Virus record (IMG/VR): IMGVR_UViG_2654587571_000016
DNA length: 11,400 nucleotides
DNA from: a virus
Taxonomy: Duplodnaviria; Heunggongvirae; Uroviricota; Caudoviricetes
Direction: 5' to 3' (one strand)
Below the pieces are notes generated by a model. It was not told where the DNA came from, searched no databases, and saw nothing but the letters and a program-made list of their open reading frames with translations. This document shows positions 1 to 11,400 of this stretch, one piece after another; the first letter of the stretch is position 1; each line of letters begins with the position of its first letter. A program made the translations under genes and the position numbers.

Positions 1-696
1 GCCTTCATCAGTGGTAAGGCACCGGAAATCAAACCCTCGCCCGGCGGCAACACGCCATCGGGTCCGTCTGCAGATACGTCCGTTCGCACAATCTCCCTGC
101 TGCCGGCAGCCGGAGAGGCTGCTGCGCAGGGCTGGAGCATTAAGGATGGCGGAATTCAGTTGTCAGATGGTGTATTTAAGATCACCAAGCAGAGCAATAA
201 AACCTGGTCCCTGACGCATCCGGTGGATGACGCAATTACCCTGCTGACACAGGGCGGCAGACTGACCTGTAAGTTCCGCCTGTCAGGCGCACTGACCAAC
301 AATCAGTTCGGTCTGGGAATTTATCTGTATACCGATGTAGCGTTACCTGACGTCGTGGCGATGACCGGGACTGGTAACCCGTTCCTGATGTCGTTCTTCA
401 CCCAGACCACAGACGGCAAACTGAATCTGATGCATCACAAGAAAGCAGGAAACACAAAGTTGGGCGAGTTCGGGAATTACAGTAACGACTGGCAGACGCT
501 GGAGCTGGTGTTCACCGCCAGCAGTGCCACGGTTACTCCGAAACTGAATGGAGTGGCTGGCCCGGCATTCCAGGTCATAAAAGACAGTCTGACACTGGGG
601 CTGAATGCACTGACGCTGACGGATATTACCAAAAATGCAACGTATGGCGTTGAGATAGAAAGTCTGGTGCTGGAAATAAATAGTCCTGCAGCGTAA
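1..696 (+). CDS. Hypothetical protein, 5'-truncated by the window edge (at least 231 aa); predicted beta-rich, function unknown
   Basis: Frame 1 is open from base 1 to the TAA at 694-696 (the listed ORF 160..696 is its distal part); followed 24 nt later by the gpR-like gene with a GGAGA Shine-Dalgarno. I do not recognise the family. Confidence 0.55.
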   Translation, partial: AFISGKAPEIKPSPGGNTPSGPSADTSVRTISLLPAAGEAAAQGWSIKDGGIQLSDGVFKITKQSNKTWSLTHPVDDAITLLTQGGRLTCKFRLSGALTNNQFGLGIYLYTDVALPDVVAMTGTGNPFLMSFFTQTTDGKLNLMHHKKAGNTKLGEFGNYSNDWQTLELVFTASSATVTPKLNGVAGPAFQVIKDSLTLGLNALTLTDITKNATYGVEIESLVLEINSPAA

Positions 697-719
697 GGAA
701 GAACAGGAGAGCAAAACAG

Positions 720-1187
720 ATGCTTAAGACAAACAGCCTCCGGAAGGGCATGATTCATGGGTGTCGCTGGTGTCAGGCCAACCCGGAAAAATTCACCATT
801 TTCGTGGAGAGCGGCAACATTGAAACGACCGGAGAAACGCCCTCGTTTGTTTACCGCTATCAGATGGTGATGTTTGTCATGGATTACGCCGGGGAGCTGG
901 ACGACCTCACGCTGCCGCTACTGGCGTGGTTATCCGAAAATCAGCCGCAATTGTTGCTTAATCCGGAGCGTAATCAGGACATCAAATTCTCCGCCGTTAT
1001 CAATGACGATGACAGCGCCGATCTCCTGTTTACGCTCCCTCTGCGGGAACGCGTTCGCATCACGCGCAGCAGTCAGGGGGCACCGCAGGCAGAACACCTG
1101 CAGGAGCCAAAACCCCGTCTGCCATCTTCCGAAGGCGACTGGTCGCATGTATTCCAGGATGTGACGTGGGGTGAAAGCGATGGATAA
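720..1187 (+). CDS. P2 gpR-like tail completion protein (155 aa)
   Basis: ATG at 720 with GGAGA upstream; same length as P2 R (155 aa); sits immediately upstream of S, V, W, J, I, H, G homologs; stop overlaps the next start (ATGGATAA). Confidence 0.6.
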   Translation: MLKTNSLRKGMIHGCRWCQANPEKFTIFVESGNIETTGETPSFVYRYQMVMFVMDYAGELDDLTLPLLAWLSENQPQLLLNPERNQDIKFSAVINDDDSADLLFTLPLRERVRITRSSQGAPQAEHLQEPKPRLPSSEGDWSHVFQDVTWGESDG

Positions 1188-1815
1188 GGCATTCACCCGC
1201 GTGGATGAAACCTTTGAGGCTATCCGCGACAGCCTGAATCAGCAGGCCATCAATAACATCGCCAGAAAGCTGGCACAGGATTTACGCCGCGCCCAGCAGG
1301 CGCGTATCCGGTCACAGAAAGCGCCGGACGGGACCGCGTGGACACCACGCAGACGCCGCGCAACCCGGATACAGGAGCGCATTCGCTTTATCTGGAATAA
1401 CGAAGCACGCACGCTGAAAAACTGGCATCACGACACGGGGAAATACGGGCGAACCATTACCGGGTGGGATGAGGATAAAAACAATATCCGCACGTTTTAC
1501 CGGGATGACATCGACCGCTTTCTGGAAATACGCACCCGGCGCATCAACCAGGACAGCACAAAGCGCGTCCCCATGTTCGTAAAACTGCGCACCGCCCGCT
1601 ACCTGAAAGCCCGTGCAGATGCTTCCGGTGTGACGGTGGGTTACAGCGGCGTGGCCGCACGTATTGCCCGCGTTCATCAGTTCGGTGAGCGCGATCAGGT
1701 TGCGCCGGGCATTTTCACCGATTACCCGGTACGTGAGCTGTTGGGCATCAGTCAGGCAGATGAACGCCTGATTTATAACACGGTGCTGGGCCGGATTGCG
1801 GAGGCTGTACGGTGA
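1180..1815 (+). CDS. P2 gpS-like tail completion / virion morphogenesis protein
   Basis: ATG at 1180 overlaps the upstream stop (alternative GTG at 1171); its TGA overlaps the GTG start of the gpV homolog (GTGA); position and size fit the P2 S slot, though larger than P2 S. Confidence 0.55.
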   Translation: MDKAFTRVDETFEAIRDSLNQQAINNIARKLAQDLRRAQQARIRSQKAPDGTAWTPRRRRATRIQERIRFIWNNEARTLKNWHHDTGKYGRTITGWDEDKNNIRTFYRDDIDRFLEIRTRRINQDSTKRVPMFVKLRTARYLKARADASGVTVGYSGVAARIARVHQFGERDQVAPGIFTDYPVRELLGISQADERLIYNTVLGRIAEAVR

Positions 1816-2393
1816 GCGCAGAACTCATGCGACTGCTGAGCAACATCATCCGCACTGGGATCATCTCTGAAGTTGATGAGAAGTCCTGGTGCGTGCGCGT
1901 TCGCAGCGGCGAACTGGAAACAGGCTGGTTGCGCTGGAACACCACGCGCGCGGGAGCCTTCAATGTGTGGCTGCCGCCATCACCCGGCGAACAGGTGGTA
2001 ATTGCCTGCATTGGCGGCAACCCGGAAACCGCCATGATAATTGGCAGCCTGTGGAGTGATGCCAATCCGGCCCCCGGCAAAAGCCTGAAAGAAATCGTGG
2101 TCAGCGCGCCGGATGGCGCGGTGTTCCGCTACGACGCGGACGCAGGCGCACTGAGCGCCAGCGGCATGAAAACGGCCACCCTGCAGGCATCCGTCAGTGT
2201 GACACTGGACACGCCCGTCGTGGAATGCACAGACCTTCTGAGAACGGCGACGCTTGACGTCACAAAAGGGGGAAAGATGAGCGGCAATATCACGCACAGC
2301 GGCGGCAATTTCACCTCAAACGGCATCACAGTGCATACGCATAAACACGGTGGCGTTAAAGGTGGCAGCGATTCGACAGGAGGCCCGCAGTGA
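1812..2393 (+). CDS. Baseplate assembly protein V (P2 gpV-like spike/hub)
   Basis: 193 aa; N-terminal ...NIIRTGIISEVD... and the C-terminal ...VTKGGKMSGNITHSGGNFTSNGITVHTHKHGG... block match the gpV family as I recall it; GGAGG 8 nt upstream of GTG 1812; GTGA overlap with the W homolog. Confidence 0.85.
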   Translation: MSAELMRLLSNIIRTGIISEVDEKSWCVRVRSGELETGWLRWNTTRAGAFNVWLPPSPGEQVVIACIGGNPETAMIIGSLWSDANPAPGKSLKEIVVSAPDGAVFRYDADAGALSASGMKTATLQASVSVTLDTPVVECTDLLRTATLDVTKGGKMSGNITHSGGNFTSNGITVHTHKHGGVKGGSDSTGGPQ

Positions 2394-2740
2394 CAACCCG
2401 CTACACAGGAATGAACCCGGACGGAACGGGAAACCTGAACGATATGGAGCATCTGAAACAGTCAGTCAGGGACATCCTGACCACCCCGCTGGCAAGCCGG
2501 GTTATGCGACGGGAATATGGCAGCCTTGTGCCCGATTTAATTGACGAACCCATGAATAACACCACTCGTCTGCAATGCATGAGTGCTGCCGTGATTGCGC
2601 TGACACGATGGGAACCCCGCATTGCCCTGGACGCCATCGACGTTGTCTGGAAGGCAGGAGGCCGCGCCGGGGTGACGCTGTCGGGCACTGTCATGCAGAC
2701 CATGCAGAATGTTGAATTAACCATCACGCTGAGGGAGTAA
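2390..2740 (+). CDS. Baseplate wedge protein W (P2 gpW / T4 gp25-like)
   Basis: 116 aa, the size of P2 W (115 aa); AGGAGG 7 nt upstream of GTG 2390; gp25/GPW-like sequence; directly followed by the gpJ homolog. Confidence 0.8.
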   Translation: MTTRYTGMNPDGTGNLNDMEHLKQSVRDILTTPLASRVMRREYGSLVPDLIDEPMNNTTRLQCMSAAVIALTRWEPRIALDAIDVVWKAGGRAGVTLSGTVMQTMQNVELTITLRE

Positions 2741-2743
2741 ATC

Positions 2744-3640
2744 ATGCCTGCCGTTGACCTTTCCCAGTTACCGGAACCCGCCATCATCGCGGAGCCTGAC
2801 TTTGAGGCAATTCTGGCTGACACAAAGGCCATGATGATTGCGTCCTATCCTGCCGAACAGCGTGAAGCCGTCTCCGCCGCGCTGGAGCTGGAATCGGAAC
2901 CCCTGAACGTTATCGCCCAGACAACAGCGTTTCGTGAAATGCTGTTACGCCAGCGGGTCAATGAGGGGGCACGCGCCTGCATGTTAAGCCACAGCGCCGG
3001 GACAGACCTGGACAACCTCGCGGGCAATATGAACACAAAGCGCCTGACCATCACTCCGGCAACGGATACCACCGACGCAGTGATGGAAAGTGACACCTCG
3101 CTGAGACTGCGGGCGCAGCGGGCGTACGATGGCCTGAGTGTTGCTGGCCCGTCAGGTGCATACGAGTATTTTGCCCGCAGCGCCAGCGGTCTGGTGCGTG
3201 ATGCGCGGGCTATCAGTCCGTCTCCGGCAAATGTGACGGTTTCCATCCTGTCCACTGAAGGCGACGGCACAGCAACGGAGGCGTTGCTTAATACCGTTCG
3301 CGCCGTTCTGAATGCAGAGGATACCCGCCCGGTGGCCGACCGCCTGACGGTACAGAGCGCCAGAATCGTGACATGGCGGCTGAATGCAAAACTGTACTTT
3401 TACCCCGGCCCGGAATCCGAACCTATTCTGGCGGCGGCTGAATCGTCGTTCAGGAAGTGGCTGGCTGAGCAGGGGCTTATCGGTCAGGACGTGGCGTTGT
3501 CCGCCATTGCTGCCGCACTGCATGTGCACGGTGTGCAACGCGTGGAGATAATCGAACCCACACAGAATATGGCCATCAGCGACATACAGGCGGCGCGCTG
3601 TGAGTCGTTCACCATCAGCGAAGGTGGGCGCAATGAGTAA
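2744..3640 (+). CDS. Baseplate assembly protein J (P2 gpJ-like)
   Basis: 298 aa (P2 J is about 302 aa); ATG 2744 with GAGGGAG upstream; stop overlaps the gpI start (ATGAGTAA). Confidence 0.85.
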   Translation: MPAVDLSQLPEPAIIAEPDFEAILADTKAMMIASYPAEQREAVSAALELESEPLNVIAQTTAFREMLLRQRVNEGARACMLSHSAGTDLDNLAGNMNTKRLTITPATDTTDAVMESDTSLRLRAQRAYDGLSVAGPSGAYEYFARSASGLVRDARAISPSPANVTVSILSTEGDGTATEALLNTVRAVLNAEDTRPVADRLTVQSARIVTWRLNAKLYFYPGPESEPILAAAESSFRKWLAEQGLIGQDVALSAIAAALHVHGVQRVEIIEPTQNMAISDIQAARCESFTISEGGRNE

Positions 3641-4163
3641 TTCACTGTTACCACCATCAGCCAGCAGTTTCATGCGTTGTGCCGAAGCTGTCGGAACGCG
3701 CATTACAGACATCCCGGTAGACCTCAACACGCTGTGGTCGCCGGACACCTGCCCGGTGCACCTGCTGCCTTATCTCGCCTGGGCATTTTCCGTTGACCGC
3801 TGGGATCGCAACTGGCCGGAAGAGACAAAACGACAGGTGATTCGTGATGCATGGCTGATACACCGACACAAAGGGACCATCAGCGCACTGCGCAGGGCCA
3901 TTGAGCCGCTGGGATACCTCATTCGCGTGTCTGAGTGGTGGGAGTTCGGCGGAGAACCGGGAACATTTACCGTTGAAGTCGGCACACTGGACAGTGGCGT
4001 GACGGAGGAAATGTATCTGGAAATGGAGCGGTTGATTGCTGATGCCCGTCCGGTCAGCCGCCACATGACAGGGCTGAATATCATTCAGGAAATTCCGGGG
4101 GATATTTTTGCAGCGGCGGCAACTCATGACGGTGAAGTTATTACCATTTATCCGGACGATTAA
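3633..4163 (+). CDS. Tail/baseplate protein I (P2 gpI-like)
   Basis: 176 aa when started at ATG 3633 (the upstream in-frame ATG 3600 lies inside gpJ and is unlikely); AAGGTGG Shine-Dalgarno; same size as P2 I; stop 2 nt before the gpH start. Confidence 0.8.
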
Positions 4164-4165
4164 GC

Positions 4166-6298
4166 ATGAGTACCACAACACGAAAATTTAAAACCGTTAT
4201 CACCGATACAGGTGCCAAAAAATTAGCTCAGGCAGCCGCGCCAGATGGTAAGCCTGTCCGCCTGACTCATATGGCCGTGGGCGACGGTGGCGGCGCGTTG
4301 CCCACACCAGACAGTAAGCAGACCCGTCTGGTGCATGAGGTGTGGCGACACACTGTTAATCGCGTCATCCTGGACGCAACACATCAGAACCGCATTATTG
4401 CGGAGCTGGTTATTCCTCCAGAAACGGGCGGATTCTGGATCCGGGAAATTGGTGTTTTTGATGAGCACGGCGATTTAATCGCGGTGGGCAATACTGCCGA
4501 AAGTTACAAGCCAGCCGTTGCCGAAGGGTCCGGACGTGCACAAACATTTCGCACCATTCTGACCGTATCCAGCACTGCCACTGTGGCGCTTACCGTGGAT
4601 AACACCATGGTGATGGCCACAGTGGATTACGTGGATAACAAACTGAAAGAGCATGAACAGTCACGATGTCACCCGGATGCCTCGCTGACCGCAAAAGGCT
4701 TTGTTCAACTCAGTAGCGCCACTAACAGCGATTCTGAAACGCTGGCTGCAACGCCGAAAGCGGTTAAGGTCGCGTATGATCTTGCTAACGGAAAATATAC
4801 AGCGCAGGATGCCACAACAGCGCGAAAAGGCCTTGTCCAGCTTAGTAGTGCAACCAACAGTACATCTGAAACGCTGGCGGCAACATCAAATGCAGTAAAA
4901 GCTGCCTATGACAATGCTGAAAAACGTCTGCAGAAAGCTAAGAATGGTGAGGATATCTCTGATAAAGACACCTTTACGAAAAATATCGGTGCCTGCCGTG
5001 CATATAGTGCAGAGCTGAATATTGGTGGAGATAGTGAAGCATGGACAACTGCGCAGTTGATTTTTTGGCTAGAGAGTCAGGGGGCATTTAACCATCCTTA
5101 CTGGATGTGCAAAGGCTCATGGGCTTATGCAAATAATAAGGTCATTACAGATACAGGTTGCGGAAGTATTTGTCTTGCAGGTGCTGTTGTGGAAGTTATT
5201 GGCACCCGCGGCGCAATGACCATACGCATTACCACACCGAGTACATCCAGCGGTGAAGGCATCCCTAATGCTCAATTTACTTATATTAATCATGGTGATG
5301 CTTATGCTCCTGGCTGGCGAAGGGACTATAACTCCAGGAATAAGCCAACAGCATCAGAGATCGGGGCGTTACCGTCAGATGGGACAGCAGTATCGTCAGT
5401 TAATCTGGCTTCAAAAGGTCGGCTGACCGCCCTGACAGATAATATGCAGGGGGCCACAGGTCTGGAGTTATACGAGGCGTATAACAACGGATATCCAACA
5501 ACGTATGGAAATATCATTCACCTGAAAGGGATGACAGCCGTTGGCGAAGGCGAATTACTCATCGGCTGGAGTGGTATAAGCGGTGCTCATGCTCCGGCAT
5601 TTATTCGTTCACGACGGGATACGCCCGACGCAAACTGGTCGCCGTGGGCGCAGCTTTACACCTCGGCTCATCCTCCTGAAGAGTTTTATCCAGTCGGTGC
5701 ACCGATTCCGTGGCCATCAGATACCGTTCCGTCTGGTTATGCCCTGATGCAGGGGCAGACTTTTGACAAATCTGCATACCCGAAACTTGCAGTCGCTTAT
5801 CCGTCAGGCGTTATTCCTGATATGCGTGGCTGGACGATTAAGGGCAAGCCCGGCAGTGGTCGTGCCGTATTGTCTCAGGAACAGGACGGCATTAAATCGC
5901 ACACCCACAGCGCCAGCGCATCCAGTACGGATTTGGGGACGAAAACCACATCGTCGTTTGATTACGGTACTAAAACGACCAGTTCATTTGATTACGGCAC
6001 AAAAACTACGAATAGCGCTGGAAATCATTCACACAATATACCTGTTGGTCACACTGGCGCGGGGAATGGTGTATCAGCCGGTTATAACGCTGCGTTAGGT
6101 ACTGGTACCACGTCGAGCGCAGGCGAGCATGCTCACAATGTATATATCGGTGCCCATAACCACACTATCGGCATTGGTGCTCATGCCCATTCTGTCATTA
6201 TTGGTCCCCACGGACACACCATCACCGTTAACGCTACGGGTAACGAAGAAAACACCGTAAAAAACATCGCATTTAACTATATTGTGAGGCTTGCATAA
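4166..6298 (+). CDS. Tail fiber protein (P2 gpH-like N-terminus and repeat region, His-rich receptor-binding C-terminus)
   Basis: 710 aa; the N-terminus (..[45 protein letters not shown]..) and the duplicated ..[21 protein letters not shown].. block match P2 H as I recall it; C-terminus carries repeated HxH motifs (HSHN, EHAHN, AHNH, AHAHS, HGH). Confidence 0.9.
4694..4912 (+). repeat. Diverged internal direct duplication in the tail-fiber gene (two ~87-nt copies, 4694-4780 and 4826-4912)
   Basis: Protein repeats [29 protein letters not shown] / [29 protein letters not shown]; the DNA copies are clearly related but diverged. Confidence 0.7.
5936..6016 (+). repeat. 30-nt tandem repeat, about 2.7 copies, encoding [10 protein letters not shown] units within the tail-fiber gene
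   Basis: Read directly: gggacgaaaaccacatcgtcgtttgattac / ggtactaaaacgaccagttcatttgattac / ggcacaaaaactacgaatagc. Confidence 0.8.
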
Positions 6299-6876
6299 TG
6301 ACATTCAGAATGAGTGAACACTCACGGACCATAAAAATTTATAATCTACTGACCGGAACCAATGAGTTTATTGGTGAAGGTGATGCATACATTCCACCTC
6401 ATACAGGTCTGCCTGCAAACAGTACCGATATTGCCCCGCCAGATATTCCGGCTGGCTTCGTGGCCGTTTTCAACAGTGATGAGGCATCGTGGCATCTCGT
6501 TGAAGACCATCGGGGTAAAACGGTTTATGACGTGGCATCAGGGGACTCGTTATTTATTTCTGAACTCGGTCCATTACCGGAAAATGTTACCTGGTTGTCG
6601 CCGTATGGAGAGTATCAGAAGTGGAACGGCACATCCTGGGTGAAAGATGCAGAAGCAGAAAAACTGTTTCGGATAAGGGAGGCGGAAGAAACAAAAAACA
6701 GCCTGATGCAGGTAGCCAGCGAGCATATTGCGCCACTTCAGGATGCCGTAGATTTGGATATTGCAACGGAGGAAGAGGCATCGTTACTGGCTGCATGGAA
6801 GACATACCGGGTATTGTTGAATCGTGTTAATACAGCGGTAGCAGCGGATGTTGAGTGGCCAGTCGCCCCACAATAA
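6298..6876 (+). CDS. Tail fiber assembly chaperone (Tfa; P2 gpG / lambda Tfa family)
   Basis: 192 aa; C-terminal ..[39 protein letters not shown].. is the Tfa signature as I recall it; start overlaps the gpH stop (TAATG). Confidence 0.85.
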
Positions 6877-6882
6877 AGAGAA

Positions 6883-6912
6883 AAAGCCATCGATTGAAAT
6901 ATAGATGGCTTT
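6883..6912. terminator. Hairpin between convergent genes (possible bidirectional terminator, better for the minus-strand transcript)
   Basis: aaagccatc-N12-gatggcttt, 9-bp stem; on the minus strand it is followed by a TTTTTCTCT run; lies 7-8 nt from both stop codons. Confidence 0.3.
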
Positions 6913-6919
6913 ATGTACT

Positions 6920-7492
6920 CTATTTATACAATACAACACCGCTCTTTTTAGTTATATATGTGCAGTTCGATGGTATATCTTTATTTATAAAAGACATTGC
7001 ACCTATTTTTACATTATCCCCAATTTTACGTGATAATCCAATGATGCAACAATTAGCTCCGATATCAACGTTACTACCAATTTTTACTCTTGAACCAGGC
7101 ATGTCACCATCTATCTGTCCAATGGTAGTATTCTGTCGTAACACCAGATTTTCACCAGCATCAACAGCAAAATGAACAACAATTCCAGCATGATGGGGAA
7201 TTGTTAACCCTTTTCCAATATTTGCGCCCAATCCAATTTCACAACCAAATTTGTTAATTATTTTACTGTTTAACTTTTTGGCTGCTTTCTTATGTAATTT
7301 ATTACCATTAATATACATTTCGTTAGCCAACCGCCACCAGAAAAGGAAATTCCGGTTACGCTGTTTTTTCTCTCTTAAAAGCCTCCAGATATCCATACGT
7401 TTCCGCCGAATTACTTCATATTTCCAGAAGTTTTTTAAATTAGTAGAGTCCCCAAATAAAACAAAGTGAATTGCCATTAAGTAAGACAGCAC
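6920..7492 (-). CDS. Hexapeptide-repeat acetyltransferase (WcaB/CysE/WbbJ-like left-handed beta-helix O-acetyltransferase); low-GC cargo gene
   Basis: Hexapeptide signature ..GCEIGLGANIGKGLTIPHHAGIVVHFAVDAGENLVLRQNTTIG..IGSNVDIGANCCIIG..; by inspection much lower GC than the flanking tail genes. Start uncertain: GTG 7492 has GGAGA 5 nt upstream; alternatives are ATG 7477 and the longest-ORF GTG 7525. Confidence 0.75.
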   Translation of the reverse strand: MLSYLMAIHFVLFGDSTNLKNFWKYEVIRRKRMDIWRLLREKKQRNRNFLFWWRLANEMYINGNKLHKKAAKKLNSKIINKFGCEIGLGANIGKGLTIPHHAGIVVHFAVDAGENLVLRQNTTIGQIDGDMPGSRVKIGSNVDIGANCCIIGLSRKIGDNVKIGAMSFINKDIPSNCTYITKKSGVVLYK

Positions 7493-7648
7493 GATAATCT
7501 CCTTAATTATTATTTCAGACCACACATATTATAAGGTTAAGAGATTATAAAATCCTGTTGTTTGTTATTCAAAAACAATTTTCTGAGAAGGACATACAAC
7601 AGCAAGTCGCCAGTCACCTTCATCAGGAAATTGGCGACATACGTTAAA

Positions 7649-8143
7649 TCAGAGCAGCCCCTTAACTGAGCTGGTCGCGCTATTAAGGGATGATGTCACC
7701 TTATCTTTGAAGCCGGACAACATATCGCTGAACGATGAGGATTGCAGGCGCTCCCGCAAATCCTCATCACAGCGTTCAAGAGTCAGTGAAAATTCTATCT
7801 TTTTCGCCTTACCGTAGCGATCAAACTCGGAGCGGGTCGTATTCGTTTCGGTCAGGACATACATGCCGTAAATCTGCCCGACGCCATCAATCAGAGGCCA
7901 GGGCCGTCCTGTATACGCCTGCGTGGTCAGCAGAGACAGCGACACTTCGCCACCTGTAATTTCAGGATAAAGCACACCAGAAAGAACGATGCGATCATCA
8001 CCTGCACCGATATACTGCCAGCTTGCTGAACGGTTAACGCGTTCATTTTTCACATGCCGCCAGCTTTTGTTTTGCTGTAACTGCTGATGCGGCAGCGTGC
8101 GCAGCTCAAAAACAAACATGCCATAGATCATCATCATGGCCAT
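7649..8143 (-). CDS. P2 gpU-like tail protein, orphan and in inverted orientation relative to the tail operon
   Basis: 164 aa; N-terminal MMMIYGMFVFELRTLP..WRH...RVNR and ..WPLIDGVGQIYGMYVLTE..IEFSLTLER resemble the gpU family from memory; normal GC, flanked by low-GC DNA. Confidence 0.6.
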   Translation of the reverse strand: MAMMMIYGMFVFELRTLPHQQLQQNKSWRHVKNERVNRSASWQYIGAGDDRIVLSGVLYPEITGGEVSLSLLTTQAYTGRPWPLIDGVGQIYGMYVLTETNTTRSEFDRYGKAKKIEFSLTLERCDEDLRERLQSSSFSDMLSGFKDKVTSSLNSATSSVKGLL

Positions 8144-8205
8144 GACTCCTCAATCTTTATCGTAAAAGTTTCAATGCTTTTTCCTGCGGAGGTAAGGGAT
8201 ATGTA

Positions 8206-8508
8206 GTGTTCAGTTGGCTGAGAACTTCAACAATTATCAGACGTTTTATACGGACACTAATTAAGATCCCAGCTAACAGGATGTTCAATACCCTTCTGTA
8301 TTTTTTCTTCACAAAGGCCGAAAATACATATTCATCCCCTGAGTGGTGGGACAGGCTCAGTGATAAACAGCGAGAGAATATCGGCAACATGATTATGTCA
8401 GGGGTTGAATTTTTTGGCAGACCTACATCACAGGTTGATCATTCCGTTGATTATAACGCCGCTGCACTTGAAGAGATAACATGCAGCAACAACGAAATTT
8501 GCAGCTGA
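8206..8508 (+). CDS. Hypothetical small protein (75-100 aa), low GC, unknown function
   Basis: ORF with a GTG start at 8206 (GGAGG about 14 nt upstream) or ATG at 8281; no recognisable family; weak translation signals, so it may not be expressed. Confidence 0.3.
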   Translation: MFSWLRTSTIIRRFIRTLIKIPANRMFNTLLYFFFTKAENTYSSPEWWDRLSDKQRENIGNMIMSGVEFFGRPTSQVDHSVDYNAAALEEITCSNNEICS

Positions 8509-8738
8509 ATGTTTACATGCTGTTAGAAAAAGCGGGCTGAACAATCATTTCGGGATTGTAACAGATAAGATGGCACTGCCCGCTTGCTTCCCGATATGCA
8601 CCTCAGCCAATAAACTTATGTAAGCAACCGATTTCCATTTATGCGGAGGTTATCAAAGTTGTTGGAGTTGCGAACTTCCGCTCTTCGCACAAAGCGTACC
8701 GCTAGGTTTGATTGTATTCTGGCTGCGCAAACTGTCAG

Positions 8739-8767
8739 TTGGAGTCTGAGCTATTACAACTTAGAAT
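8739..8767 (+). promoter_or_regulatory. Candidate sigma70 promoter for the ogr-like gene
   Basis: TTGGAG (8739-8744), 17-nt spacer, TAGAAT (8762-8767); about 30 nt upstream of ATG 8798. Confidence 0.25.
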
Positions 8768-8797
8768 AGCGGCAGCACCACGTTAAGGGAGGTCGCT

Positions 8798-9058
8798 ATG
8801 TTCCGTTGTCCGCTTTGTGGCGCATCTGCCCGAATCCGCACCAGTCGTCCGGAAAACGATTCAAACACTGTGCGGCAAAAGTATTACCAGTGTAACAACC
8901 TGGAATGCGGCGTATGCTTCTCAACACTGGAAGCTTTCCATAAATTCACATCAAAACACGCCTCCGGCGTTCACTCTTCGGAAGGTATCCCGTGGCATGA
9001 GCTGCCAGCTTCACACAGGGGAAACAATCAGATGAGTTTGCCTTTACCTCAGAATTAA
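8798..9058 (+). CDS. ogr: Ogr/Delta-family zinc-finger late transcription activator (P2 Ogr-like, with C-terminal extension)
   Basis: MFRCPLCGASARIRTSR...YYQCNNLEC: the CxxC...CxxxxC zinc-finger layout and MF.CPLC start of Ogr/Delta; strong Shine-Dalgarno (AAGGGAGG); 86 aa against about 72 aa for P2 Ogr. Confidence 0.8.
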   Translation: MFRCPLCGASARIRTSRPENDSNTVRQKYYQCNNLECGVCFSTLEAFHKFTSKHASGVHSSEGIPWHELPASHRGNNQMSLPLPQN

Positions 9059-9067
9059 CAGGCAGAA

Positions 9068-9096
9068 TTGCCGGAGTAACAAAAAAACGATAGATT
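9068..9096 (+). promoter_or_regulatory. Candidate promoter for the hok mRNA (long structured leader expected)
   Basis: TTGCCG (9068-9073), 17-nt spacer, TAGATT (9091-9096), about 150 nt upstream of the hok ATG, in line with the long leaders of hok-family mRNAs. Confidence 0.2.
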
Positions 9097-9248
9097 ACCC
9101 GCGGGTGCCTTTCGGCTGATGGTCGGAGGAATACCCGAAGGCCGGATGTGGAAAGGCCCCGGAAAACATTTCTGTTTAACCGAGGCCCTAACATATCTAC
9201 CTTAAGCAAGTGATAGGTTAGCGCCTCTCCAACAAAGGAGCAAGCGCT

Positions 9249-9389
9249 ATGTCGCAAAAATCGCTTACAGCCATCACGTTCTGCGTGACGGTAATCCTCA
9301 TCATCTGGATGCTACACGGTTCGCTGTGTGAAATACGGATGAGCTTCTGGGGAGCGGAGTTTGCGGCGTTCTTACAGTGTAAGCAGTAA
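9249..9389 (+). CDS. hok: Hok/Gef-family type I toxin (46 aa membrane peptide)
   Basis: MSQKSLTAITFCVTVILIIWMLHGSLCEIRMSFWGAEFAAFLQCKQ: hydrophobic N-terminal helix followed by the conserved SLCEIR...AAF(L/M) motif shared with HokA/HokC as I recall them; AAAGGAG Shine-Dalgarno 8 nt upstream; missed by the 60-aa ORF track. Confidence 0.8.
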   Translation: MSQKSLTAITFCVTVILIIWMLHGSLCEIRMSFWGAEFAAFLQCKQ

Positions 9390-9398
9390 GGAAACCGC

Positions 9399-9420
9399 GA
9401 CGGGGGAGCAATCCCCCGTC
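9399..9420 (+). other. GC-rich perfect hairpin in the hok 3' UTR (possible mRNA stability or fold-back element)
   Basis: gacggggga-gcaa-tcccccgtc: 9-bp perfect stem, 4-nt loop, no U-run after it. Confidence 0.4.
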
Positions 9421-9475
9421 AATCGGTTGCTAAGGTTGGCTGAAGTGGCACCCTATCTCACAGACATGAACAACA

Positions 9476-9509
9476 AACCCGCAGCGTAAGAACTGCGGGT
9501 TTTCTTTTT
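9476..9509 (+). terminator. Intrinsic terminator of the hok transcript (possibly bidirectional)
   Basis: cccgcag-cgtaagaa-ctgcggg followed by TTTTCTTTTT. Confidence 0.6.
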
Positions 9510-9577
9510 GGAACAATCACTAGCTAGTGTACCGTTAACGGCACATAATGCTCGCACAACAAACCTGTTAAAAGAGA

Positions 9578-9859
9578 TTACTCAGCATTCTCCTGCTTCC
9601 ATTGCCGGATCATTTCATCGGTAACATCACCCTCATAACATACCACGTCATACCCTCCATTACGGCTATATGCACTGCGTCCACCACATCTACTACCATT
9701 CCTTGCATGATTATAAGGACACGCACAATTGCCTGGATAAGATTCAATGGATTCTTTAATTATTTCTTTTTTGATCTGAGCATCAGACTTTCCTGTTGCT
9801 GCATATCCACTAAAAGATACTAAACAAAGGCAGATTGCCATTAATAAACCACATCGCAT
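9578..9859 (-). CDS. Small secreted cysteine-rich protein of unknown function (about 93 aa, predicted signal peptide)
   Basis: Taking ATG 9859 gives MRCGLLMAICLCLVSFSGYA|ATG..., a signal-peptide-like N-terminus; mature part holds 5 Cys (..PGNCACPYNHARNGSRCGGRSAYSRNGGYDVVCYEGD..). The longest ORF runs to 9973 (TTG/ATG) but that extension is non-hydrophobic and lacks a Shine-Dalgarno. Confidence 0.5.
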   Translation of the reverse strand: MRCGLLMAICLCLVSFSGYAATGKSDAQIKKEIIKESIESYPGNCACPYNHARNGSRCGGRSAYSRNGGYDVVCYEGDVTDEMIRQWKQENAE

Positions 9860-10140
9860 ACCGATACACTCTATTACTAACCAATCATAGCCCACATCAT
9901 AAAATCGAGATGAGGAGTACAATACCTTTAACAAGAAGGTGTCATAACGATAATATGTCGTGCAATTCATCAAAAAAAAGATCTATATCAAAGAGATAGA
10001 ACTCTTATCAGTGCTTCAGACATCGGCATTCGAGGCAGCAGAAAAACAGTAAATCTGACGAATTTGCCTTTTCCCAAGATGTTGTCAGATTAAAAAGATA
10101 GATTAGCGCAGGTACCTGTTGGTGGATTGCAGGAGGAAAA

Positions 10141-10245
10141 ATGAAGTCGAGTGAAAAAATCCCAGAAAAATTTTTGTTTAACAGAGGTCCTGGTTCACTA
10201 TGCGAAATACGGAGGAGCTGCAGAAGAATTCTGCTTCATCCTTAG
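10141..10245 (+). pseudogene. Decayed hok-like paralog (34-codon ORF retaining the SLCEIR motif but lacking the transmembrane segment)
   Basis: MKSSEKIPEKFLFNRGPGSLCEIRRSCRRILLHP; DNA homology to the intact hok both in the coding region (ggttcactatgcgaaatacgga vs ggttcgctgtgtgaaatacgga) and upstream (gatagattagcgca vs gataggttagcgcc); AGGAGG Shine-Dalgarno retained. Confidence 0.4.
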
Positions 10246-10329
10246 AGTTTAAACAGCACGTGCACTACCATTGTTTCTGCATATCGCCACACCATCGCCA
10301 CTCTACCGCCATTGCACAAAATACAAATA

Positions 10330-10355
10330 CGAAAAAACCACCCGAAGGTGGTTTC
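10330..10355 (-). terminator. Intrinsic terminator of the glyW-cysT-leuZ tRNA operon
   Basis: On the minus strand: aaaccacc-ttcg-ggtggttt hairpin followed by a TTTTTT run, about 40 nt after the leuZ 3' end. Confidence 0.6.
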
Positions 10356-10397
10356 ACGACACTGCTTATTGCTTTGATTTTATTCTTATCTTTCCCA

Positions 10398-10484
10398 TGG
10401 TACCCGGAGCGGGACTTGAACCCGCACAGCGCGAACGCCGAGGGATTTTAAATCCCTTGTGTCTACCGATTCCACCATCCGGGC
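10398..10484 (-). tRNA. leuZ: tRNA-Leu (anticodon UAA)
   Basis: The reverse complement matches E. coli tRNA-Leu(UAA) as I recall it (GCCCGGATGGTGGAATCGGTAGACACAAGGGATTTAAAATCCC...GGGTACCA), 87 nt including CCA. Confidence 0.95.
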
Positions 10485-10496
10485 TCGGGAAGAAAG

Positions 10497-10570
10497 TGGA
10501 GGCGCGTTCCGGAGTCGAACCGGACTAGACGGATTTGCAATCCGCTACATAACCGCTTTGTTAACGCGCC
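10497..10570 (-). tRNA. cysT: tRNA-Cys (anticodon GCA)
   Basis: The reverse complement matches E. coli tRNA-Cys as I recall it (GGCGCGTTAACAAAGCGGTTATGTAGCGGATTGCAAATCCG...CTCCA), 74 nt. Confidence 0.95.
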
Positions 10571-10624
10571 AAATTCTTCAGGCCTTTCAGCCAGACATCC
10601 GCTTGACGCCGATGTCTTTTAAAC

Positions 10625-10700
<76 letters not shown>

Positions 10701-10773
10701 ATTCATCAAGCAATCAGTTAATCACTTGATTTTATTATCGTCTGGCAATCAGTGCCGCCGTTCGATGCGTTGC

Positions 10774-10801
10774 ATTCTACTTACCTGGCGCGATGAGTCA
10801 A
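10774..10801 (-). promoter_or_regulatory. Candidate sigma70 promoter of the tRNA operon
   Basis: On the minus strand: TTGACT (10796-10801), 16-nt spacer, TAGAAT (10774-10779), with an AT-rich UP-like stretch further upstream; about 70 nt upstream of the glyW 5' end. Confidence 0.35.
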
Positions 10802-10851
10802 CGATATTTTTCACCACTTTTGATCGTTTGCTGAAAATTACGCCGAAACGA

Positions 10852-11400
10852 TCACTGATCAAGCAAATCTGCACGCGCAGCGCTCAAATATTGCAACATT
10901 GACCACAGAGTCAGTACCGCAGCCACAAAGAAAAGTGCAATACCGGCGTACTCAACCCAAATGTTCGGACGCCACAGCAGCCATGCCAACGCCACCATCT
11001 GGGCAGTGGTTTTCACTTTCCCAATCCAGGAGACGGCCACGCTACTGCGTTTACCCAACTCCGCCATCCATTCGCGTAGCGCAGAAATAATAATTTCACG
11101 GGCGATCATCGTTGCCGCCGGTAATGTCACCCACCAGCTGTGATAATGCTCGGTTACCAGCACCATGGCGATAGCCACGAGAACTTTATCTGCCACAGGG
11201 TCAAGGAAAGCACCAAACCGGGTACTCTGGTTCCAGCGGCGTGCCAGAAAACCATCGAACCAGTCAGTCACCGCCGCGACGCAGAAAATGAGCGCGGCGG
11301 CAAACGGCGACCAGGTGACAGGCAGATAAAAGACCAATACAAAGAATGGGATAAGGATGACACGGAACAGTGTAAGCAACGTAGGGATATTAAATTGCAT
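10852..11400 (-). CDS. pgsA: CDP-diacylglycerol--glycerol-3-phosphate 3-phosphatidyltransferase (phosphatidylglycerophosphate synthase)
   Basis: 182-aa [33 protein letters not shown]... with the CDP-alcohol phosphotransferase motif (DGFLAR..G..LDPVADK); the start codon is the last three bases of the window. Confidence 0.95.

Follow-up and report, generated by a model that had tools for sequence, protein, structure and literature searches.

The leuZ-proximal island edge in an Escherichia coli prophage fragment is very probably the attR junction of a P2-like prophage with an HP1-type integrase

The window analysed here, an 11,400-nucleotide stretch of DNA from the IMG/VR virus record IMGVR_UViG_2654587571_000016, carries at its right-hand end a block of genes that all lie on the minus strand: pgsA (10852–11400) and the tRNA genes glyW (10625–10700), cysT (10497–10570) and leuZ (10398–10484). 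The tRNA genes were located with ARAGORN, in agreement with a sequence-only reading of the same DNA, which had placed them beside the edge of an island. The leuZ gene, encoding tRNA-Leu(UAA), is further defined by an Rfam tRNA match of 57.7 bits and by the repeat structure described below. A terminator scan placed the intrinsic terminator of the glyW-cysT-leuZ operon at 10334–10355 on the same strand, with its T-tract ending at 10332.

The left part of the window is P2-like. Positions 1–8167 carry, on the plus strand, a P2-type lysis-moron segment (the C-terminus of a DUF6645 protein) and the tail and baseplate genes R, S, V, W, J, I, H and G, as identified by the match to strain RM8385 and by Pfam; an acetyltransferase moron and U, recognized by their Pfam families, lie within the same segment on the minus strand. 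The ogr/delta late-gene activator (8798–9058, plus strand; Pfam Ogr_Delta, E=5e-14, and annotation) marks the ogr end of the phage. The families GpR, Tail_S, base_V, GPW_gp25, Baseplate_J, Tail_P2_I, GpU and Ogr_Delta together assign the element to the P2-like phages, and related phage records are classified as Xuanwuvirus. The FI-FII-E-E'-T-U operon, together with the acetyltransferase moron, is inverted relative to H-G and D-ogr (window 6920–8143; locus L001, 10011–16315). In P2, this tail operon is co-directional with its flanking genes.

Between ogr and the att arm lies a hok/sok-type toxin–antitoxin locus (9103–9389, plus strand; hok coding sequence 9249–9389; Pfam HOK_GEF, E=3.7e-7), where the match to the Rfam sok family RF01794 reaches 46.7 bits, below the gathering score of 59. 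It is followed on the minus strand by a gene for a 93-aa hypothetical protein (9578–9859; WP_001303543.1), annotated in strains E2865 and RM8385 and in O157:H7. This protein has a signal-peptide-like N-terminus and belongs to phrog_27544 (E=7e-58), a family of no assigned function; a Pfam search gave no match. The gene is a moron. Similarity to P88-like Xuanwuvirus phages stops at about 9509–9511, and the DNA from 9511 to 10331, between the phage backbone and the att block, is not matched in other free-phage records and is absent from K-12. This non-backbone segment, which contains all of 9974–10331, comprises the 93-aa ORF, the candidate arm sites discussed below and, inside the P arm, a degenerate hok-like pseudogene (10085–10260, plus strand). 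Alignment of the pseudogene to the intact hok locus (9090–9400) shows that it keeps the ribosome-binding site/start and C-terminal 'LCEIR' regions and has an internal deletion.

Certain phages whose gpU is identical and whose tail modules are nearly so terminate at hok beside ihfA-pheT rather than leuZ (loci L006, L007 and L012, approximately 1–1700), and these ihfA-integrated relatives are without the 93-aa gene. Phages that are otherwise almost the same have thus exchanged their att/int module.

The window contains a deletion junction at 8167|8168. Relative to near-identical prophages, 7,513 bp are missing, including most of the tape-measure gene, E, E', the tube, sheath and D genes, and two-thirds of a SEC-C/'YecA family' gene. 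No microhomology is present at the junction. The junction occurs in 0 of 5,426 complete E. coli genomes and in none of the gpU gene contexts, a 38-mer across it was not found in the GTDB representatives, and an exact look-up of the ORF that crosses it returned no record. Either the prophage of the window is defective through this 7.5-kb deletion, as a case of strain-specific decay, or the window is spliced.

On the other side, similarity to K-12 begins at window position 10332, the final T of the leuZ terminator. This start was obtained from a three-way alignment with W3110 and by exact string matching, and again by megablast of window 9400–11400 against the 5,426 complete E. coli genomes. The block to the right of 10331/10332 is 100% host-like, and since K-12 similarity starts only at 10332, all of 9974–10331 is non-K-12 DNA. 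The proposal that foreign DNA lies to the left of about 10.3 kb was thus borne out, with the breakpoint now fixed at 10331/10332. That yecA directly follows leuZ is also correct for the K-12 sequence, and the empty, K-12-like yecA-leuZ junction was found in 3,792 of the 5,426 complete genomes (70%); the sequence left of about 10.33 kb is consequently inserted DNA. About 30% of complete E. coli genomes are without an uninterrupted yecA-leuZ junction.

It had also been remarked that neither an integrase gene nor a duplicated tRNA 3' end is visible in the window, and both remarks hold. With four leuZ-associated or HP1 integrases as queries, tblastn detected no integrase in the window (best E=0.26), and the annotation of the corresponding region in near-identical genomes lists tail, baseplate, ogr, hok and the 93-aa ORF and no integrase. 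A 30-mer search allowing up to three mismatches matched only leuZ itself, so that no second leuZ 3' end lies in the window, and no relevant direct repeat was found within it. Nor is this the edge of a P4-type island, in which an integrase gene would lie directly downstream of the intact tRNA gene; here the 93-aa ORF, hok and ogr follow leuZ.

The missing parts are found in near-identical genomes. Window segments 1–8167 and 8168–11400 are each about 100% identical to Shiga toxin-producing E. coli (STEC) genomes, among them O103 strain RM8385, O111, O26 and E2865. RM8385 differs from the window by one mismatch in 1–8167, none in 8168–10983 and five in pgsA. These five substitutions, at window 10984–11194, adjoin 2.8 kb of identical prophage and tRNA DNA, so that the host background is not that of the closest prophage match.

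In RM8385 and E2865, the yecA-leuZ interval is occupied by a complete P2-like prophage of 37.3 kb. From yecA its order is attL, int, immunity and early genes, a replication gene and parM; then portal, terminase, capsid and lysis genes, followed by R, S, V, W, J, I, H and G; and finally the inverted U-T-E-FII-FI block, D, the SEC-C gene, ogr, hok, the 93-aa gene, attR and leuZ. In P2-type phages, attP is flanked by int and ogr, so that the integrated prophage has one of these genes at each end. This accounts for the absence of both the integrase and the second repeat from the window, which shows the ogr-side end. Measured leftward from window position 1 in RM8385, the start of int is at 18.3 kb and the end of the attL repeat at 19.4 kb. 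An integrase and an att repeat outside the window, the finding that the sequence-only reading had named as speaking against its own interpretation, thus do exist in near-identical genomes, although at this distance and not just outside the window. We conclude, with a probability of about 0.9, that window 9974–10452 is attR, the right-hand junction of a P2-like (Peduoviridae, Xuanwuvirus-type) prophage at leuZ.

The junction is a known feature, the ordinary and previously described attR of a P2-like prophage with an HP1-type integrase. The defective P2-like prophage Sp13 of O157:H7 Sakai, which is CP-933T of EDL933 (PMC3338595), is an element of the same type at the same yecA-leuZ site. It shares with the prophage described here the integrase (99% nucleotide identity over the attL-int junction), the 121-bp att block and the 93-aa gene beside leuZ. 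In the O157 element, the first three genes at the int end match ECs2617–2619 of Sp13 in size and spacing (compared with PMC3338595). The two copies have decayed differently: that of O157, 21 kb in length, no longer has its head genes or the D-ogr-hok segment, which were lost to IS elements, and has kept int, attL and the 93-aa gene, whereas that of the window keeps ogr-hok and the baseplate and fibre genes and has its own 7.5-kb deletion of sheath, tube, tape-measure and D genes. Sp13, the single P2-like prophage of Sakai, is Int+ and att+, is induced by mitomycin C, and excises and circularizes, as demonstrated by PCR and qPCR (PMC2669165). The leuZ locus is listed among the standard prophage sites in STEC (PMC8767318); a literature search on leuZ in combination with P2-like phages yielded nothing useful.

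One might still suppose, as the sequence-only reading did, that the element has lost its integration module, in the sense that the int/attL end is gone from the window's own genome and the leuZ junction is a fixed scar. Such remnants do exist. In strain 167 the ogr-hok-93aa-attR end is retained and no integrase is present, and the excess of genomes carrying the attR arm and junction of the window (593 of the 5,426) over those carrying the attL-int junction (525, about 68 fewer) points to further int-less remnants. The prophage of the window is, moreover, already defective through its tail deletion, so that further decay is possible. However, RM8385 and E2865, both at least 99.9% identical to the window, have int and attL intact, about 89% of the genomes with the attR arm have both, and even the IS-eroded O157:H7 version still has int and attL and still excises (PMC2669165). 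With the integrase and the 121-bp repeat in place in the closest relatives, loss of the module is not supported; we consider it unlikely, and int is presumably present in the window's own genome as well.

Strain 167 itself (locus L018, 4760–19400) carries a defence island in place of the prophage except for that right-hand end. The island encodes a type I restriction R subunit, a DUF262 protein, a PD-(D/E)XK nuclease, a TIR protein and a restriction endonuclease, and also contains a group II intron and IS elements; at the other end, the attL block is kept and is followed by different DNA.

The att site itself is a 121-bp identity block. Its attR copy, at window 10332–10452, takes in the terminator, the 66-bp 3' trailer and the final 55 nt of leuZ, through to the end of the anticodon loop. 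In E2865 (locus L003, 16400–16520) and RM8385, the block recurs without a mismatch beside int, at the end of the prophage that faces yecA, 37,334 bp away; in K-12 it is single-copy (locus L002, 4004–4124). Prophages of this type are thus bounded at both ends by a direct repeat that includes the 3' part of a tRNA gene, the window holding the attR copy, and the unoccupied, single-copy site is found in the strains with an empty junction. A target-site duplication of the transposon type was considered and rejected, as the perfect 121-bp repeat ends in the anticodon loop and lies beside an HP1-type integrase gene.

Divergence of the occupied site from K-12 sets in at the terminator when the site is approached from leuZ, and at the anticodon loop when it is approached from yecA. 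Among the occupied genomes listed in a spread sample (nine rows), the match from the yecA side stops at query position 425/426, which corresponds to the end of the loop. This yecA-side break argues that the phage inserted in leuZ and not in the spacer, and the true insertion point would be the leuZ anticodon loop (window 10446–10452, gene on the minus strand, TTTTAAA on the plus strand), the putative strand-exchange or overlap region. On this assignment, leuZ in the window probably consists of a host 5' part (10453–10484) and a phage-supplied 3' part (10398–10452), and the phage is the most likely source of both the 3' half and the terminator. Since E2865, RM8385 and strain 167 show no difference between their attL and attR copies, the crossover and the phage origin of the window's copy are assigned from the homology to HP1, the position of the break and the other elements that use the site. 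In O157:H7, a single SNP separates the attR copy from the attL copy, which is weakly consistent with a phage origin of the attR block and is not decisive. An allele shared by O157 and strain XD35 was suspected and was dropped after the positions were checked.

A contiguous attP form (P arm, 121-bp block and P' arm) was found neither in phage records nor in IMG/VR nor in metagenome contigs. Host sequence is present in the phage-collection records with this int (520873) or with the attL block (vB_EcoM-569R10 and similar); these records therefore appear to be prophage cut-outs.

The integrase is a 333-aa protein whose gene, in E2865, RM8385 and O157:H7, is separated from the attL repeat by 106 bp, placing a tyrosine integrase next to the att site. 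It contains the Pfam domains Int_N (PF24624) and Phage_integrase (PF00589), matches the sequence of the HP1 integrase catalytic-domain structure 1AIH (E=1.7e-74) and is 58% identical to the integrases of HP1, HP2 and S2 over its full length (331 aa). It is therefore a homologue of HP1 Int, and the att layout is shared with HP1 too. The HP1 attP (U24159, 251–694) contains tRNA-Lys and the 3' part of a tRNA-Leu(UAA) ending at GCGAGGGATTTTAAA. The tRNA-Leu fragment ends at GAGGGATTTTAAA in the anticodon loop, the same point at which the leuZ block ends, and beyond it lie a P' arm, about 160 bp long, and then the 3' end of int. By its sequence layout, the leuZ phage likewise would have its attP core at a tRNA anticodon loop, with the identity block extending through the tRNA 3' end and beyond. 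The two systems differ in their hosts, in the position of the P-arm repeats, which in HP1 lie about 40 bp further out, and in the extent of the identity block, which in HP1 includes the whole tRNA-Lys gene and in E. coli stops at the operon terminator.

The P arm contains three direct repeats, ATCGCCAC, ATCGCCACT and ACCGCCAT (10283–10313, plus strand), that are helically phased at 11–12 bp and are candidate arm-type Int sites. The motif recurs as TATCGCCACT on the int-side P' arm, +95 from the loop (locus L003, 16616–16624). Pairs of GCCA(C/G)T repeats lie at -210/-199 and +94/+105 in the HP1 attP, the P' distance being close to the +95 of the leuZ phage. The hexamer TCGCCA is enriched relative to shuffled sequences (P<=0.0005). 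Candidate GCCAC-type direct repeats, recognized as a sequence motif, are thus present on both arms, and they match the arm-binding consensus tgccGCCActt of 186/HP1-type integrases (PMC3448106). Integrases of the 186 type target tRNA genes, their long cores keep the tRNA intact, and HP1 uses a tRNA-Leu gene (PMC3448106). The class of integrase, the tRNA-restoring long core and the arm consensus are common to the leuZ phage, coliphage 186 and the 186-type Peduoviridae (PMC3448106), while 186 differs in having tRNA-Ile targets and another core length. By analogy with related integrases, integration is probably helped by IHF; when the reconstructed attP was scanned with a strict IHF consensus, no exact match was found.

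Other elements use the same site. The lambdoid phage mEp390 has an annotated attP of 121 bp that is homologous to the leuZ block and has the same boundaries. Its block is 88.5% identical to that of the host, with compensatory changes, while its integrase is essentially unrelated to that of the P2-like phage (21% identity) and is encoded on the other side of attP. In XD35, leuZ is occupied by an island of the P4 type that shares the target gene and the block with the leuZ phage; its integrase gene adjoins the tRNA gene, the layout which had been expected for the window and which the window does not have. The island (locus L016, 17808–20160) carries type I restriction–modification genes along with the P4-type integrase gene.

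In the mEp390 and XD35 copies of the block, the T stem is kept by a compensatory change of C:G to U:A, and the terminator has a variable loop on a conserved stem. The diverged, element-borne block of XD35 forms the 3' half of the annotated leuZ gene, which indicates that element-borne copies do become part of the working gene. No host-type second copy of the block was detected in the XD35 genome. The last element-specific difference in XD35 lies in the T stem, at approximately 10426 in window coordinates, so that the exchange would have taken place to its right, by 10452. The leuZ anticodon loop is used by at least four unrelated lineages, namely the HP1-type P2-like phage, the mEp390-type lambdoid phage, the P4-type island and the defence island.

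These observations also bear on the second possibility that had been raised, that the foreign DNA was inserted or recombined between the terminator and yecA, at 10331/10332, with leuZ and its terminator being original host DNA. The start of the divergence from K-12 exactly at the terminator end, together with the fully host-like block to its right, is what such an event would leave. Yet the far junction repeats 121 bp, reaching 55 nt into leuZ as far as the anticodon loop, and a simple insertion would not duplicate these; the listed occupied genomes break at the loop when approached from yecA; the integrase is a homologue of that of HP1, whose attP core is a tRNA-Leu anticodon loop; and in XD35 a diverged, element-borne block serves as the 3' half of the working leuZ. 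We regard an intergenic insertion as very improbable. Of the overall earlier interpretation, then, the insertion relative to K-12 stands, and neither of the two explanations offered for the edge is supported. The remaining possibility, that the prophage layout is the ancestral, conserved state of the species and K-12 lost the prophage, could appeal to the occurrence of the junction in 593 genomes of several lineages but is to all intents refuted by the uninterrupted site with a single copy of the block in 70% of complete genomes, by the variety of its occupants (P2-like phage, elements with mEp390-like integrases, P4-like island and defence island) and by the flanking direct repeats, which are a signature of insertion.

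The reading of the junction as attR of a P2-like prophage suggests the following course of integration. The phage attP would carry a 121-bp copy of host sequence that starts at the leuZ anticodon loop, takes in the tRNA 3' end and the trailer, and stops at the final T of the operon terminator. Int, bound to the GCCAC-type arm repeats and probably acting with IHF, would exchange strands in the anticodon loop of leuZ. At attR, the host 5' half of leuZ would thereby gain its 3' half, trailer and terminator from the phage, and the tRNA operon would be left functional. At attL, the original host 3' half of leuZ and its terminator would become an orphan fragment beside int and yecA; judged from its position in the near-identical genomes, attL would lie about 19 kb beyond the left edge of the window.

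The three readable element-borne copies of the block (P2-like phage, mEp390 and XD35) all stop no more than about 7 bp from the final T of the terminator. These attP copies therefore span the whole of the remaining transcript. It is tempting to speculate that attP identity blocks are in general delimited by the transcript end, since lysogens must restore 3' processing and termination, and that gene conversion between attL and attR keeps the phage copy identical to that of the host. We found no earlier statement of such a transcript-end rule in the literature and put it forward tentatively, as a doubtful generalization.

Two points follow, mainly for annotation. Where the phage is of the P2 type, the lack of an integrase at an island edge beside a tRNA gene does not show the element to be decayed or unusual, because int in such phages sits at the opposite end of the prophage. 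Likewise, divergence from a reference does not mark the insertion point of an occupied site: here the divergence begins at the terminator end, and insertion was most plausibly at the anticodon loop. The working leuZ gene and the terminator of its operon in these lysogens would then be in part phage-derived. The locus is an integration hotspot in heavy use, about 30% of complete E. coli genomes having it occupied.
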